Notes under the pieces: generated by a model
The model's input: only the letters and a program-made list of their open reading frames with translations
The model's database searches: none
What the model was told of the DNA's origin: nothing
Made by a program: the position numbers and the translations under genes
In this document: in pieces, positions 11,358 to 50,175 of the stretch
How positions within the stretch are numbered: the stretch's first letter is position 1
Layout: each line of letters begins with the position of its first letter
Assembly: GCF_024700885.2 (NCBI RefSeq)
Contig: NZ_CP117016.1
DNA: 64,000 nt
Strand: one strand, 5' to 3'
Source: Escherichia coli
GTDB lineage: Bacteria; Pseudomonadota; Gammaproteobacteria; Enterobacterales; Enterobacteriaceae

Positions 11358-11417
11358 AAACGCGGTGCCATTGGGCAGAATTAGCTCGGAGTAACAGGTT
11401 TTGAGTATTTACAGGAA

Positions 11418-12132
11418 GTGATGGTGGTGGGGGAAGGATTACTCAGCGCTGCGCGCTTCACCCTTCGGGTCGTTGCCTGCGGCAACGCTTTCTCGCTGGC
11501 GCTCGAGTCGCACCTTGGTCGAAGCTTCTCATCCTTCCCCGCATGGGCAGAATATTTAATTGCGGATTCGTTTGAGAGTTCACGGACTTTTGAAAAGTGA
11601 TGGTGGTGGGGGAAGGATTACTCAGCGCTGCGCGCTTCGCCCTTCGGGTCGTTGCCTGCGGCAACGCTCTCTCGCTGGCGCTCGAGTCGAACCTTGGTCG
11701 AAGCTTCTCATCCTTCCCCGCATGGGCAGAATATTTAATCGCGGATTCGTTTGAGAGTTCACGGACTTTTGAAAGTGATGGTGGTGGGGGAAGGATTACT
11801 CAGCGCTGCGCGCTTCGCCCTTCGGGTCGTTGCCTGCGGCCACGCTCTCTCGTTGGCGCTCGAGTCGAACCTTGGTCGAAGCTTCTCATCCTTCCCCCGC
11901 TTGGGCAGAATATTTAATTACGGATTCGTTTGAGAGTTCAGGGACTTTTGAAAGTGATGGTGGTGGGGGAAGGATTACTCAGCGCTGCGCGCTTCGCCCT
12001 TCGGGTCGTTGCCTGCGGCCACGCTCTCTCGCTGGCGCTCGAGTCGAACCTTGGTCGAAGCTTCTCATCCTTCCCCGCATGGGCAGAATATTTAATCGCG
12101 GATTCGTTTGAGAGTTCACGGACTTTTGAAAG
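11418..12132 (-). repeat. rtT: rtT tandem repeats downstream of tyrV (four ~178-179-bp units, each ending in the tRNA-Tyr 3' segment)
   Basis: Unit starts at 11418, 11597, 11775, 11954 (next unit is tyrV at 12133), plus a degenerate partial unit at ~11340-11417; an Arg-rich small ORF ([24 protein letters not shown], ~11458-11532, -) resembles the recalled protamine-like Tpr. Confidence 0.8.
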
Positions 12133-12135
12133 TGA

Positions 12136-12220
<85 letters not shown>

Positions 12221-12254
12221 AGGGGTAATTCAAATTTTGAGGTAATGCTTGAGA

Positions 12255-12339
<85 letters not shown>

Positions 12340-44329: not shown

Positions 44330-45004
44330 TCAGTCTAAGTATTGATGTATTTGTGAAACTTTACCTTTAATGGTGTAACCACCATTCAGTTCGATGGGTT
44401 TGTAAAGCGGATTCAGTGACAACAGATAGATGTTTGGTCCGTCAATCGCAACTTTTTTTAGTGTTACGTTTGGCGTTCCTTCCAATTGGATTAAGATTAT
44501 TTTTCCCACCAGTTCTCTAATGTTACTTGAGCATGGTGTGATCAGCACGGTAGATCCGTCGGGGATGGTTGGGAGGCCGTTAGAGTTTGTCATCGCATCT
44601 CCCTCAACATGCAATAAAAAAGAGTTTTCAGCGGTTTTTGTCATGACATCAACCCAGTTCTTAATACCAGGAATCTTGGTTACTGGACAACTCATATCCC
44701 AATAACCAGCCTGTTCCCACGTTAAAACGGGCAACCGGGCGATGTTGTCACTAATGTAAGGGTACTGATTCAGACGCAGATCATCGGTTTTATCGTGACC
44801 GTCCTTTCCATAAAGAATCCATTCAGGAGATTTGGAAAGCAATTTTGACAGTAGATACAAATTCTCACCGTCAGGTTTTGAAGAGCCATTTTCCCATTTT
44901 GTTACGGATACACGAGATATGCCGATTGCTTTCGCAACCTGCTGTTGGGTTAATCCAACGTCTTTTCGACGATTCCGAATACGTTCGCTGATAGTGTTTT
45001 TCAT
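44330..45004 (-). CDS. cI: CI-like prophage repressor (HTH-XRE + S24 LexA-like peptidase domain)
   Basis: ORF 44330..45103; HTH (VGLTQQQVAKAIGISRVSVTKWENG) and C-terminal autocleavage domain; start placed at the Met at 45004 so operators stay intergenic (alternative Met at 45046). Confidence 0.75.
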   Translation of the reverse strand: MKNTISERIRNRRKDVGLTQQQVAKAIGISRVSVTKWENGSSKPDGENLYLLSKLLSKSPEWILYGKDGHDKTDDLRLNQYPYISDNIARLPVLTWEQAGYWDMSCPVTKIPGIKNWVDVMTKTAENSFLLHVEGDAMTNSNGLPTIPDGSTVLITPCSSNIRELVGKIILIQLEGTPNVTLKKVAIDGPNIYLLSLNPLYKPIELNGGYTIKGKVSQIHQYLD

Positions 45005-45068
45005 GTAACCAATGTTACTACCAAGTGATGTTGCTATGGTTGACATTGTTATGTAACTATTGTTACCC
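45005..45068. promoter_or_regulatory. putative OR/PR/PRM region with GTAAC-N4-GTTAC operators
   Basis: Palindromes gtaaccaatgttac (45005-45018) and gtaactattgttac (45053-45066); perfect -35 TTGACA at 45040-45045 facing the cro-like gene. Confidence 0.5.
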
Positions 45069-45095
45069 TTCTGCTCGAAATAACAGGAGAGTTTT

Positions 45096-45311
45096 ATGTT
45101 CAAAGATGATGTTCTGCGCTATTTCAAAAAAAAGCGACTAGTAGCTGAGGCTCTTGGAATTTCACATGTGGCTGTTGTGCGGTGGAAAGCAGTTATTCCC
45201 AAACTTCGCGCAATGGAACTGGATGAAATTACTAACGGTGAATTGAAATACAACCCAGAACTTTACAAGAAGCAGGATAGCACCTCGAACGAAGGAAAGA
45301 ATGATTCATGA
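45096..45311 (+). CDS. Cro-like HTH regulator
   Basis: 71-aa ORF with AGGAGA Shine-Dalgarno; HTH (KKRLVAEALGISHVAVVRWK); divergent from the repressor. Confidence 0.65.
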   Translation: MFKDDVLRYFKKKRLVAEALGISHVAVVRWKAVIPKLRAMELDEITNGELKYNPELYKKQDSTSNEGKNDS

Positions 45312-45733
45312 AAATCAAGCATGAACACATCCGCATGGCGATGAATGCCTGGGCGCATCCGGACGGCGAAAAAGTACCGGCTGCGAAAATTACCAAAGCG
45401 TATTTCGAGCTGGGAATGACGTTCCCGGAACTGTATGACGACAGCCATCCGGAAGCCCTGGCCCGTAATACCCAGAAAATTTTCCGTTGGCTGGATAAAG
45501 ACACCCCTGATGCTGTTGAAAAAATGCAGGCTCTGTTACCGGCGATCGAAAAGGCGATGCCGCCTTTGCTGGTGGCCCGTATGCGCAGCCACAGTTCTGA
45601 ATATTACCGTGAGATCGTCGAACGGAGGGATCGGCTGGTGAAGGATGTCGATGATTTTGTTGCGTCAGCGGTTGTTTTGTATGACCAGATGAATCGCGGC
45701 GGCCCGGCAGGGAATGCTGTGGTGATGCACTAA
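45308..45733 (+). CDS. hypothetical early protein at the cII position (possibly YdaT-like)
   Basis: 141-aa ORF translationally coupled to the cro-like gene; family assignment is from memory only. Confidence 0.4.
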   Translation: MKIKHEHIRMAMNAWAHPDGEKVPAAKITKAYFELGMTFPELYDDSHPEALARNTQKIFRWLDKDTPDAVEKMQALLPAIEKAMPPLLVARMRSHSSEYYREIVERRDRLVKDVDDFVASAVVLYDQMNRGGPAGNAVVMH

Positions 45734-45755
45734 AAGCACGGTGTTCGGGGGTTTT

Positions 45756-46718
45756 ATGAGCAGCAAGCTTCATGGTCTTGTCTGGGAAGGGTGCGCCTTC
45801 ACCGGCATGATCTTATCCAGGGTGGCGGTTATGGCCCGTCTTGCAGACTACAGCAATGACGAGGGCGTGTCATGGCCTGCCATTGAAACTATCCGGCGTC
45901 AGATCGGTGCAAGAAGTGAATCCACAGTGAAATCGGCTATTGCAGAACTGGCGAAAGAGGGCTGGCTGACGAAGGAAGAGCGTAAGGTCGGTGGGCGTAA
46001 TGTAAGCAATATCTATCGGCTTAATGTGGAAAAACTCGAAGCAGCTGCGGCGGCGGCGCGTGAGTCATATAAACCGAAAAGAAAAATTAGCCCGGCAAAA
46101 AATGACCCGTTAACAGTTGACCCGTCAAATATTGACCCCTCAACGGTTGACCCGTCAAATTTTGATGGATCAACTGTTGATAAAAAACTGCCGATTAGGG
46201 GGCCGATGATTGACCCCGATCCGTCAGTATTAAAACCTGATCCGTCAGATAAAAGATCTTCTTGTCCGGACGCTTCGCAACCGGACCCGCAGACGGCTGA
46301 ACAGGATTTTTTAACCCGACACCCTGACGCGGTTGTGTTCAGTGCGAAAAAACGCCAGTGGGGAAGTCAGGAAGATTTGGTGTGCGCACAGTGGATCTGG
46401 GGACGAATCGTGAGTCTTTACGAGCAGGCGGCCAGCTATGATGGCGAGATCACTAGACCGAAAGAACCCAACTGGACAGCATGGGCCAATGACGTTCGCA
46501 CAATGCGGATGCTGGATGGCAGAACTCACAGACAAATTTGTGAAATGTTTGGGCGTCTCCAGCGGGATTCGTTCTGGGTAAAAAACATCATGAGTCCGGC
46601 AAAACTCCGGGAAAAATGGGATGAACTGGTTATCCGCCTGGGGCGTTCGCCTGCGCAGCGTTGCGTGAATCACATTTCTGAACCGGACACTGAAATACCG
46701 CCGGGATTCAGGGGGTGA
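45756..46718 (+). CDS. replication initiator (phage O-like, N-terminal HTH)
   Basis: ORF 45741..46718; ATG at 45756; N-terminal HTH; contains internal iterons (next feature). Confidence 0.7.
   Translation: MSSKLHGLVWEGCAFTGMILSRVAVMARLADYSNDEGVSWPAIETIRRQIGARSESTVKSAIAELAKEGWLTKEERKVGGRNVSNIYRLNVEKLEAAAAAARESYKPKRKISPAKNDPLTVDPSNIDPSTVDPSNFDGSTVDKKLPIRGPMIDPDPSVLKPDPSDKRSSCPDASQPDPQTAEQDFLTRHPDAVVFSAKKRQWGSQEDLVCAQWIWGRIVSLYEQAASYDGEITRPKEPNWTAWANDVRTMRMLDGRTHRQICEMFGRLQRDSFWVKNIMSPAKLREKWDELVIRLGRSPAQRCVNHISEPDTEIPPGFRG
46100..46180 (+). repeat. candidate origin iterons inside the O-like gene
   Basis: Four ~18-bp direct repeats (ccgttaacagttgac / ccgtcaaatattgac / ccctcaacggttgac / ccgtcaaattttgat) followed by an A/T-rich stretch; encode the peptide repeat DPLTVDPSNIDPSTVDPSNFD. 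Confidence 0.65.
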
Positions 46719-46724
46719 CGTGTC

Positions 46725-47471
46725 ATGAAAAACATTGCGGCAGTTGGGGTTCTTGAACGTATTCGCAGACTTGCACCACAGGGGTCGGTTCCACCGTACC
46801 GGACGGTGGAGGAGTGGCGGGAATGGCAACTTGCTGAAGGACGAAAACGCAGCGAGGAGATTAACCGCCAGAATCGCCAGTTGCGGGTGGAAAAAATCCT
46901 GAATCGTTCGGGCATCCAGCCTCTGCACAGCAAATGCTCGTTTGCAAATTATCAGGTGCAGAACGACGGGCAAAAATACGCGCTGAGCCAGGCCAAATCC
47001 ATAGCTGACGAACTGATGACCGGGTGCACGAATTTTGTGTTCAGCGGTAAAACCGGCACCGGGAAAAATCACCTTGCAGCGGCGATGGGCAACCGGCTGA
47101 TGGTGAAGGGGCGCAGCGTGATTATCGTCACCGTGTCTGACGTCATGAGCGTGTTGCATGACAGCTACGACAACGGCAAATCCGGGGAAAAATTTTTACA
47201 GGAGCTTTGCGGGGTTGATTTGCTGGTCCTGGATGAAATAGGCGTTCAGCGGGAGACGAAAAACGAGCAGGTGGTATTGCACCAGATAATTGATCGCCGG
47301 ACAGCATCACTGTGCAGTGTCGGGATGTTAACAAACCTGAATCATGCCGCAATGAGTACGCTTCTTGGTGAGAGGATTATGGACCGCATGACCATGAACG
47401 GTGGTCGATGGGTGACGTTTAACTGGGATAGCTGGCGTCCAAATGTCAGCAATATGAGGGTTGTGAAGTAA
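46725..47471 (+). CDS. DnaC/IstB-like AAA+ helicase loader
   Basis: 248-aa ORF with Walker A (GKTGTGKNHLAAA) and Walker B (LLVLDEIG). Confidence 0.8.
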   Translation: MKNIAAVGVLERIRRLAPQGSVPPYRTVEEWREWQLAEGRKRSEEINRQNRQLRVEKILNRSGIQPLHSKCSFANYQVQNDGQKYALSQAKSIADELMTGCTNFVFSGKTGTGKNHLAAAMGNRLMVKGRSVIIVTVSDVMSVLHDSYDNGKSGEKFLQELCGVDLLVLDEIGVQRETKNEQVVLHQIIDRRTASLCSVGMLTNLNHAAMSTLLGERIMDRMTMNGGRWVTFNWDSWRPNVSNMRVVK

Positions 47472-47492
47472 TTTTGTCCGGAGGAAATTTTA

Positions 47493-48263
47493 ATGGAAAC
47501 CGTATCTGACGCACTGAAAGCACTGAAAAAAGCCTCTTCACATGTGGTGGCAGCTCGCCTTGGAATCAGTCGTGAAGAGGCTGTCAACGAGCTGTGGGAA
47601 CTCAAAAGAAATGGCGTCGTTGATAAAACTGGTCACACCTGGTTTCTGGCTGGCGAAGGTGAATCCCGGGTAACCGAAGAGCGGCCAGTAAAATCTGAAG
47701 CACAGGATATGCTGACCGGGGAGGTCGAACAAAAAGTTACCGCAGACATGATGATTGAGTTTATCGGTCAGGATGGGGCTAAAACGTGTGAGGAACTGGC
47801 GGGTAAGTTCGGTGTCAGTACTCGCAAGGTTGCTTCCACGCTGGCGGTGGTAACCGCAACGGGGCGGCTGGCACGCGTTAATCAGAACGGTAAATTTCGT
47901 TACTGCATGCCGGGCGATAATTTACCAGCAGAGCCGAAAGCCGCGCTGGTAACGGAAAGTGATGGTAAGGCCTTTCCTCAGCCAGCAGGTGCTGCGTTAC
48001 CAGTCCGGGAAGCCGCAACACAGGAAGAAATTAAAACAGAAACTGTGGCGGACATTGTGCAGCCGTTGCCATCGTTTACCGAAACGCAAGCAGATGAGCT
48101 GATTTTTCCGTCCCTTCGCAGGGCAAACCTGGCGCTGCGCAGGGCGAAAAGTGATGTTCAGAAGTGGGAGCGAGTCTGCGCCGCGCTGCGGGAGCTGAAC
48201 AAGCACCGGGATATTGTTCGACAGATTACTGATTCTTCCCGCCGTGTTGTATCGGAAAAGTGA
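47493..48263 (+). CDS. hypothetical phage protein
   Basis: 256-aa ORF with N-terminal winged-helix-like segment; nin-region position. Confidence 0.5.
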   Translation: METVSDALKALKKASSHVVAARLGISREEAVNELWELKRNGVVDKTGHTWFLAGEGESRVTEERPVKSEAQDMLTGEVEQKVTADMMIEFIGQDGAKTCEELAGKFGVSTRKVASTLAVVTATGRLARVNQNGKFRYCMPGDNLPAEPKAALVTESDGKAFPQPAGAALPVREAATQEEIKTETVADIVQPLPSFTETQADELIFPSLRRANLALRRAKSDVQKWERVCAALRELNKHRDIVRQITDSSRRVVSEK

Positions 48264-48868: not shown

Positions 48869-49507
48869 ATGAAGATGAAAAACATGTCTGAAGTGTTGAC
48901 CCAAGAAAAGCTTATTTTTGTTGCCCAGAGACTAAATGCCCTCGCGCAGTCAGGCCTGACCTATTCAAAAGACGTCTTTGACAAGGAACGCTATGAAGCC
49001 TTGCGTGAAATTGCCGCTGGACTGCTGAGTTCGCAGTTTGATATTAGCCGCAATGATTTGTTTCATGTATCGGAAACGGGTTACGCGACGCCCAAAACAG
49101 ATGTGCGTGCGTTTATCCTGCGTAATAATCGTATTCTGATGGTGAAAGAGGCTGCAGATGGATTATGGAGTCTTCCTGGCGGATGGGCAGATGTTGGAGA
49201 TACACCTTCTGAAGCTGTGCGTCGAGAGGTCGAAGAAGAAACCGGATTAAAAGTCAGAGTGACTAAACTATTGGGAGTTTGGGATCGTAATCTTCACGGC
49301 CATCCGCCTTTACCCTGGCATGTTTACAAGCTGATTTTTCTCTGTGAAGAAGTAGGTGGCAGCCTGTCAATCAGCCATGAGTCACTCGATGCTGATTTTT
49401 TTGATGTCAACGACCTGCCTGAATTGTCGCTTTCAAGAATTGTGCCTGAGCAGATTGCTGTCAGCCTGAGAGTAGCGAAAGGTGATGAAAAAACATGGTT
49501 TGATTAA
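48869..49507 (+). CDS. NUDIX hydrolase with N-terminal extension
   Basis: 212-aa ORF with canonical Nudix box GGWADVGDTPSEAVRREVEEETGL (GX5EX7REUXEEXGU). Confidence 0.8.
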   Translation: MKMKNMSEVLTQEKLIFVAQRLNALAQSGLTYSKDVFDKERYEALREIAAGLLSSQFDISRNDLFHVSETGYATPKTDVRAFILRNNRILMVKEAADGLWSLPGGWADVGDTPSEAVRREVEEETGLKVRVTKLLGVWDRNLHGHPPLPWHVYKLIFLCEEVGGSLSISHESLDADFFDVNDLPELSLSRIVPEQIAVSLRVAKGDEKTWFD

Positions 49508-49530
49508 CTTTCTTCTGCAACCATTAAGGA

Positions 49531-50175
49531 ATGGCAATGATATTCAACGCTAAGGGTTTTTTATTCGATATGGACGGTACGCTGGTTGATTCAACAGCCG
49601 TAGTGGAAAGCGTCTGGAGAGATTTTTGTGCAGAATACGGTCTTGATACTCAGGCTGTGATTGCTTACGCACACGGGCGGCAAACGATTGATACACTGAC
49701 GCATTTTATTGGTGCAGGTGAGAAAACCAATAAAATCGCGGCCTCACTCGAAGAGGTTGAAATCAACACGACAGAAGGCGTTACTGAAGTAAAAGGGGCC
49801 GCTGCACTCTTATCAAAACTGCCACCGGATAGCTGGGCACTTGTTACTTCTGCAGGCAGAATGCTTGCCGAAAACAGGATGAAAGCGGCTAATCTCCCCT
49901 TACCCATAGTAATGGTGTGTGCAGAAGATGTAATGACGGGAAAACCAAGTCCCGAGGGTTACATCAAAGCAGCTTTGGCTTTGGGCCTTGAGCCTGGTGA
50001 ATGCGTGGTATTTGAGGATGCATCTGCGGGTATAAAAGCAGGGCTGGCAAGTGGAGCTTCGGTAATAGCTGTTCAGCCTGACGCTCTGGGATCATCTGAA
50101 GCCCATGCCGTCAGCGAGCTGTCTGACATTATGGTCAAGATTTCCGGAGAACGTTTCAATATCATCTGTGGTTAA
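49531..50175 (+). CDS. HAD-superfamily phosphatase
   Basis: 214-aa ORF with motif I FDMDGTLVDS and downstream HAD motifs; AAGGA Shine-Dalgarno. Confidence 0.8.
   Translation: MAMIFNAKGFLFDMDGTLVDSTAVVESVWRDFCAEYGLDTQAVIAYAHGRQTIDTLTHFIGAGEKTNKIAASLEEVEINTTEGVTEVKGAAALLSKLPPDSWALVTSAGRMLAENRMKAANLPLPIVMVCAEDVMTGKPSPEGYIKAALALGLEPGECVVFEDASAGIKAGLASGASVIAVQPDALGSSEAHAVSELSDIMVKISGERFNIICG

Follow-up and report, generated by a model that had tools for sequence, protein, structure and literature searches.

A lambdoid prophage adjacent to ompW in Escherichia coli contains an array of short tandem repeats inside the coding sequence of a 320-amino-acid (aa) protein. The prophage lies in a 64,000-nucleotide (nt) stretch of contig NZ_CP117016.1, which was analysed as a whole and is called the window here. 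With a probability of about 0.7, judged from the sequence and from analogy with characterised phages, the array is the initiator-binding part of a lambdoid prophage origin of replication. Its 15-nt repeats are the likely iterons for the winged-helix N-terminal domain of the protein encoded across them, and together with their flanks they would form the origin. This is probably an origin of the lambda, phi80 and P22 kind, with iterons within the initiator gene, here in the HTH_36 initiator family. Initiator binding, unwinding, helicase recruitment and origin activity are proposed by analogy with lambda and phi80. An earlier note on this DNA had suggested a lambda-like layout, in which an initiator gene contains its own origin. 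This layout is supported by a protein match to PHROG 391, a modelled winged helix, a gp15-like C-terminus, a neighbouring DnaC-like loader, the inter-domain position of the repeats, a constraint at the DNA level and the co-inheritance of the array with the DNA-binding domain.

The repeat array and the constraint on its DNA

Tandem Repeats Finder reports five copies with a period of 15 nt, and a period of 30 scores higher. The unit starts are 46086 (degenerate), 46101, 46116, 46131, 46146, 46161 and 46176 (half unit), such that the five-unit array is flanked by degenerate units at 46086-46100 and 46176-46190. Read in frame, units 1-3 are AAT GAC CCG TTA ACA / GTT GAC CCG TCA AAT / ATT GAC CCC TCA ACG and units 4-6 are GTT GAC CCG TCA AAT / TTT GAT GGA TCA ACT / GTT GAT AAA AAA CTG. 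The encoded peptide, NDPLT-VDPSN-IDPST-VDPSN-FDGST-VD, has a period of five residues. The earlier note had described four direct repeats of ~18 bp within the coding sequence at 46100-46180, mirrored in a DPSxVDPSN peptide. The repeats, their place and their coding location stand, as does the peptide mirror, while the period has to be corrected to 15 nt.

The core of each unit is a 12-bp dyad, TTGACCCGTCAA (TTGAC-CC-GTCAA), with the general form TTGA-N4-TCAA. It is exact at 46117-46128 and 46147-46158, carries one mismatch at 46132-46143 and two at 46102-46113. In the fifth core at 46162-46173 (TTGATGGATCAA, TTGAT-GG-ATCAA), the central 4 bp are inverted and both arms are altered together, which keeps the dyad. 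The dyad sites lie between the DNA-binding and the C-terminal domains of the protein. The TTGA-N4-TCAA motif occurs four times in the window, always inside the array and at an exact spacing of 15 nt. For the shorter TGA-N4-TCA form, four sites are observed in an 80-bp window, compared to a maximum of two across 200 Markov simulations. The array as a whole is an imperfect palindrome of 67 nt (46112-46178; 33-nt arms, 1 nt apart, 79% complementary). Its single-strand DNA fold has a z-score of -5.0, close to the -4.6 of the phi80 iteron array, and the arrays of homologues behave alike. The repeats are real and above chance expectation.

Two other explanations for the sequence pattern were discarded. 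A scan of 44900-47600 revealed no sigma-70-like promoter site, which speaks against the TTGAC-bearing repeats as promoters. Matches to structured RNAs are sub-threshold and at chance level, and the 'mir-250' match in Rfam merely mirrors the palindrome of the array.

When the 30-aa repeat peptide is recoded with codon frequencies taken from adjacent genes, a mean of 0.23 cores results, versus four observed, and only one of 20,000 trials reached four (P about 5e-5). A similar picture emerges from eight phage homologues (SfIV, phiP27 L17, Klebsiella phage Kp4866-6, vB_EcoS-733R5, phiNP, LLS, YeP1 and Stx2_KH16-043), which share 54-71% identity in the N-terminal domain and each carry 4-7 units of 15 nt in tandem at the corresponding position. 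When units are defined solely by the peptide pattern x-[DE]-x-S-x, the serine codon is TCA in 37/40 units, compared to 60/241 serine codons in the remainder of these genes. In 37/40 units the first codon ends in T, placing T ahead of GA, across eight different amino acids. The DNA that stays constant across the homologue units is T-GA-N4-TCA-A.

The same holds in a wider sample. SfIV, phiP27 L17, phiNP, LLS, YeP1, 733R5, Klebsiella phages and 80 examined IMG/VR loci (out of 582 confirmed relatives in IMG/VR) all show 3-7 units at this location, in which TGA-N4-TCA is invariant. Among close relatives, the copy number varies from 3 to 6 and changes only in steps of 15 nt. In the lineages L078 and L079, TTGACCCCCCAA units share a register with TTGAGGGGTCAA units. 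The latter represent the TTGACCCCTCAA core read from the opposite strand, and depending on the orientation the units are translated into DPP/DPS or EGS. The presence of units in either orientation within one register fits a symmetric protein-binding DNA site; selection on the peptide would hardly account for it. Judged from these comparisons, the constraint acts on the DNA rather than on the peptide, and the odd D-P-S repeat would be explained as a by-product of the DNA sites.

The inheritance of the initiator gene is mosaic. Population data reveal a jump in diversity at about 46266, and other phages become homologous exactly from 46218 or 46251 onwards. The DNA-binding domain, the array and a downstream block containing GATCCGTCA motifs are passed on as a single unit, with the C-terminal domain exchanged among relatives. 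The array accompanies the HTH_36 domain even when the upstream genes differ, as in SfIV, 733R5, phiNP (Rha) and phiP27. Some match to the initiator gene is present in 3264/5426 complete E. coli genomes, with 1084 records at 99% identity or higher, and relatives occur in Shigella, Klebsiella, Citrobacter, Yersinia and Shiga toxin (Stx)-converting phages.

A 15,977-bp circular E. coli 'plasmid' record (L091, NZ_CP148542.1) consists only of a prophage segment from cI to the lysis genes, with an initiator N-terminus that is 93% identical. The circle may represent a replicating fragment that was amplified or excised, or else an error of assembly. Plasmid records were rejected as proof of autonomous replication, as most are prophages within megaplasmids or mislabelled chromosomes and the meaning of the L091 circle is uncertain.

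The initiator and its helicase loader

RefSeq labels the 320-aa protein merely as a 'helix-turn-helix domain-containing protein', but as a whole it matches phrog_391, 'replication initiation O-like' (E 4e-115). It consists of a winged-helix domain, a disordered linker encoded by the repeats, a C-terminal domain resembling that of phi80 gp15, and a DnaT-like tail (Table 1). Pfam detects HTH_36 at aa 25-71 (27.9 bits), besides a weak DnaD_N match. In an AlphaFold model based on 43 homologues, the N-terminal domain contains the helices H3-16, H20-31, H43-50 and H55-67, a wing (E71-78/E81-89) and a final helix H91-104, with a predicted local distance difference test score (pLDDT) of 71-86. Foldseek matches of this domain are winged-helix dimers of the MarR/ArsR/PadR type, and a sequence search against solved structures yields only weak MarR-type helix-turn-helix matches. 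Winged-helix proteins of the MarR/ArsR/PadR type typically bind dyad sites as dimers. The modelled fold would be consistent with binding to the repeats, and many positions of the domain are invariant across nine homologues.

The linker (aa 109-176), encoded by the repeats and the D-P-S motifs that follow them, is predicted to be disordered (pLDDT <50) and lies between the two folded domains. The C-terminal domain shares 36% identity with phi80 gp15 (BLASTP, E 4e-26, aa 183-304 versus 174-285), and the tail behind it is floppy in the model. In architecture the protein is O-like, but by sequence it falls outside the lambda O family. A link between lambda O and HTH_36 has been described at the HHpred level (PMC5509034). 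An iteron plasmid replicon of the Rep_3 type (RepA-pi-RepE), defined by a Rep protein with winged-helix domains in tandem and by iterons of ~17-22 bp that lie outside rep, was also considered; it was rejected on the basis of the missing Rep_3 match, the single winged-helix domain in the model and the intragenic repeats with their 15-nt period.

Table 1. Features of the predicted origin and its surroundings (positions refer to the window)
Feature	Position	Strand	Basis or remark
Iteron array, five 15-nt units (predicted)	46101..46175	.	Repeat, motif and recoding analyses
Right A+T-rich stretch AACTGTTGATAAAAAACTG, A6 run, just right of the array	46172..46190	.	19 nt, 74% A+T; candidate weak unwinding element
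Left A-rich block with A-tracts	46066..46104	.	39 nt, 67% A+T; possible bending/unwinding flank
Conserved block TTGACCCC-GATCCGTCAG ... CTGATCCGTCAGATAAAAGATCT	46209..46262	.	Two GATCCGTCA motifs, GATC sites, mosaic junction
Initiator gene, 320 aa	45756..46718	+	Open reading frame (ORF); RefSeq WP_000095675.1 has the same start
N-terminal winged-helix DNA-binding domain, aa 1-105, presumed iteron reader	45756..46070	+	Model
Folded helical C-terminal domain, aa 181-296	46296..46643	+	pLDDT 77-96; phi80 gp15 homology
C-terminal tail RCVNHISEPDTEIPPGFRG, last 19 aa	46659..46715	+	Common to host DnaT and Rac YdaU
DnaC-like helicase loader, 248 aa	46725..47471	+	Pfam IstB_IS21; phrog_50; NCBIfam PRK12377, 506 bits
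Immunity and early-right context	44330..45733	.	ORF, Pfam, PHROG
cI/LexA-type repressor	44330-45103	-	Immunity region
P22-Cro-like gene	45096-45311	+	
YdaT/CII-like gene	45308-45733	+	

The gene directly 3' of the initiator is IstB/DnaC-like, and a lambda-P-type partner (PF06992) is not found beside the initiator. The loader shares 80% identity with YdaV of the Rac prophage and 48% with E. coli DnaC. The initiator ends in RCVNHISEPDTEIPPGFRG, a sequence very close to the C-termini of host DnaT (RDVNTVSEPDSQIPPGFRG) and Rac YdaU, and the genes for the initiator, dnaT and ydaU are each located immediately 5' of a DnaC-type gene. This suggests that RCVNHISEPDTEIPPGFRG is a portable peptide that docks onto DnaC or the DnaB-DnaC complex. 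A DnaT_C motif has been reported in an O-like protein (PMC5509034). A correlation between the tail and the neighbouring loader follows no simple rule, as the GFRG tail is found with a neighbouring phage DnaC-like gene at 39 loci and without it at 39 loci. In SfIV, 733R5, phiNP, LLS and YeP1, a loader or P-like gene is not present beside the initiator, and a DNA methylase or a small ORF is found instead. Phages of this initiator family without a loader presumably rely on host DnaC.

Whether these features define a replicon type of their own is a more speculative matter. It is conceivable, if rather doubtful, that the module represents a widespread and uncharacterised enterobacterial phage replicon, possibly corresponding to the 'Eru' HTH_36 type of Stx phages, which would combine a winged-helix initiator that reads tightly packed 15-bp dyads in either orientation with direct docking to DnaC or DnaB-DnaC via the DnaT-like tail (…VN..S.PD..IPPGFRG) and dispense with a lambda-P-type adaptor. 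If true, these initiators, DnaT and Rac YdaU would have a portable loader-recruitment peptide in common, namely the tail, host dnaT-dnaC would resemble a phage module of this type that became domesticated, and the GATCCGTCA pair with its Dam sites could be an additional control element.

Flanks, proposed mechanism and alternative readings

The A/T-rich stretch that the earlier note placed after the repeats exists at 46172-46190, although it is weak, with a length of only 19 nt and a z-score of ~2. The least stable 30-mer of the initiator gene, 46157-46187, overlaps it and likewise deviates from its neighbourhood by a z-score of ~2; the right and left A+T stretches are both ~2 standard deviations below the local mean stability. 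A run of AAAAAA/AAAAAT comes after the array in most homologues. The left A-rich block is lineage-specific, and SfIV-type homologues lack such a block. A DnaA-box-like site, TTATCAACA, is located at the right edge of the array (46175-46183, minus strand), with one mismatch to TTATNCACA. It was dismissed as a DnaA box, since it is a single one-mismatch site and such sites occur at background density in the window (0.84 per kb).

The conserved block further to the right has the lowest nucleotide diversity of the initiator gene. GATCCGTCA occurs just twice in the window, with the two copies 21 nt apart and each containing a GATC (Dam) site. Four GATC sites cluster at 46168-46255, three of them within the block, and at least four are found in only 0.3% of all 100-bp windows. 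The codons of the GATCCGTCA block are identical among diverged homologues, and Klebsiella-type genes have three tandem 12-nt copies. The pair possibly provides extra sites for the initiator or a host factor, serves as a Dam/SeqA target, or is simply a recombination linker.

A model for origin function can be outlined by analogy. Upon loss of the repressor, the rightward early transcript would express the initiator and cross the origin. The initiator, probably dimeric because each core is a dyad (TTGA-N4-TCAA), would occupy four or five sites at 15-bp spacing, and maybe the downstream GATCCGTCA sites as well. The resulting nucleoprotein complex would distort the DNA and open one modestly A+T-rich flank. 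The C-terminal domain and the DnaT-like tail could then bring host DnaB to the opened DNA via the adjacent phage DnaC-like loader.

Several observations weigh against assigning an origin to the array. A convincing DNA-unwinding element was not found, as the flanking A+T stretches are short and only ~2 standard deviations off the local mean; the A+T block of lambda is ~40 bp long and much stronger than the flanks here. At a spacing of 15 bp, adjacent sites do not face the same side of the helix, in contrast to the ~21-bp spacing in phi80. The N-terminal domain has no match to Phage_rep_O (PF04492) in Pfam, and a profile comparison (hhalign) with the N-terminus of phi80 gp15 is not significant (probability 3.6%). 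Broken units such as TTGCCCCCTCAA or TTAACCCGTCAA occur in some natural variants, indicating that individual sites are not strictly conserved, and decay may be under way in many such prophages. Common ancestry and recent unit duplication inflate the codon statistics, such that the P-values overstate the case. Finally, neither experimental evidence nor a described origin for SfIV, SfII, phiP27 or HTH_36 initiators was found in the searchable literature.

The weak A+T element and the tight spacing, 15 bp as opposed to 21 bp in phi80, would also suit an array that is bound by the initiator solely for control, i.e. for autoregulation, titration, handcuffing or incompatibility, while replication starts elsewhere in the prophage. 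Such roles are known for plasmid iterons. A control function without initiation is nevertheless unlikely here: a second cluster of the motif is not found anywhere in the 64 kb, and a coding region 3' of the start, which lacks a promoter-like site, is a poor spot for promoter autoregulation. In addition, wherever intragenic iterons of lambdoid phages have been characterised, they constitute the origin (PMC8022706; PMC7466680; phi80 record).

The array could also be read at the level of the protein, as a disordered, low-complexity D-P-S linker that grew by replication slippage and left the DNA repeat as its shadow. The predicted disorder, the copy-number changes by whole units and the degenerate units of natural variants agree with this proposal. 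It is very unlikely, however, considering that T precedes GA across eight amino acids, that TCA is used in 37/40 units, that the recoded peptide rarely yields the motif, that reverse-complement units encode DPS and EGS in the same register, and that both the individual units and the entire array are dyad-symmetric. Recognition by a different protein, such as the YdaT/CII-like regulator, host DnaA or SeqA/Dam, appears highly improbable. It is suggested by the CII-like gene just 5' of the initiator and by the GATC cluster and the one-mismatch DnaA-box-like site that adjoin the array. Yet the array is always found with the HTH_36 domain while the upstream genes vary, the DnaA-like match is at background frequency, and the GATC sites are mostly outside the cores.

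Relation to known origins and prophage setting

The origin proposed here can be compared with that of phi80. The GenBank record of phi80 annotates four gp15-binding sites in gene 15, with a 21-nt period and located between the N- and C-terminal domains. Both systems have dyad-symmetric initiator sites inside the initiator gene at an equivalent inter-domain position, a homologous C-terminal domain, dyad symmetry across the entire array, and a location in the early-right operon after cro and cII-like genes. In contrast, gp15 has a Phage_rep_O (PF04492) N-terminus instead of HTH_36, the iterons are unrelated (TTCCCGAAAACGGGAA at a 21-nt period versus TTGACCCGTCAA at a 15-nt period), and the partner gp14 is lambda-P-like (PF06992), whereas a DnaC-like AAA+ loader is encoded here. 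The architecture and the C-terminal domain are thus common to gp15 and the present protein, while the DNA-binding domain and the repeat family have been swapped. Such a swap agrees with the classical view that the specificity of lambdoid origins is modular.

The iterons of lambda, P22 and L are located inside the initiator coding region (PMC8022706). Lambda O dimers bind about four dyad iterons, or six in Stx phages (PMC7466680; PMC8022706), and synonymous iteron mutations abolish a lambda-type replicon (PMC7466680). As in lambda, where ori lies in gene O, the initiator gene of the present prophage would house its own origin, but it lacks a Phage_rep_O match and a P protein, the repeats are shorter and tighter, and the A+T-richness is much weaker. 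In the Salmonella phages P22 and L, the repeats in gene 18 (six imprecise 11-bp repeats in L) were put forward as origins from sequence alone (PMC8022706). P22 and L resemble the present system in having their own repeat family inside the coding region of a distant or non-homologous initiator; they differ in the unrelated repeat sequences and in using a DnaB-type helicase (gp12) as partner instead of a DnaC-type loader.

The Rac prophage, with ydaU-ydaV and oriJ, shares the gene order repressor, cro-like, YdaT-like, initiator, loader and DUF977, in addition to the related loader and the final 19 aa of the initiator. YdaU, however, is a different protein with a DUF1376 N-terminal domain and no comparable tandem repeat array, and the alignment is limited to these 19 aa; equivalence to Rac oriJ was therefore rejected. 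As described in PMC8951638, the Stx-phage replication regions of the types Eru8 and Eru11 contain a YdaT-family gene and an HTH_36 gene beside cI; no origin is given for them there. That survey of Stx-phage replication regions from 2022 states that nothing is known about the replication of the non-lambda 'Eru' HTH_36 types (PMC8951638). The P27 studied by the Wegrzyn laboratory has a lambda-type O with lambda-type iterons (PMC7466680) and differs from phiP27, the source of the L17 homologue; the corresponding plasmids were therefore not accepted as experimental proof.

A lambda-style origin in an HTH_36 gene would provide the 'Eru' HTH_36 group with a concrete origin and a consensus for the initiator sites (TTGA-N4-TCAA or CTGA-N4-TCAAAA). 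The finding helps to annotate a prophage module that is found in many E. coli genomes, even if it is conceptually expected. It would extend a 45-year-old paradigm to another initiator family and leaves the understanding of phage replication unchanged.

Early rightward transcription reads into the initiator gene, and the loader gene is followed by DUF1627 and DUF977 genes. In the present prophage, genes for a NUDIX hydrolase and a HAD hydrolase (48869-50175) are inserted 3' of the DUF977 gene. Other carriers of the replication module have QueH in the post-DUF977 slot, or the anti-phage genes iteS/iteA within the matched region. The region after DUF977 looks like a variable cargo slot. Elsewhere in the window, a 179-nt tandem repeat (11416-12154; 4.1 copies, 96% matches) adjoins two tRNA-Tyr(GTA) genes on the minus strand (12136-12339) and resembles the known repeat region beside the tyrT-tyrV locus.

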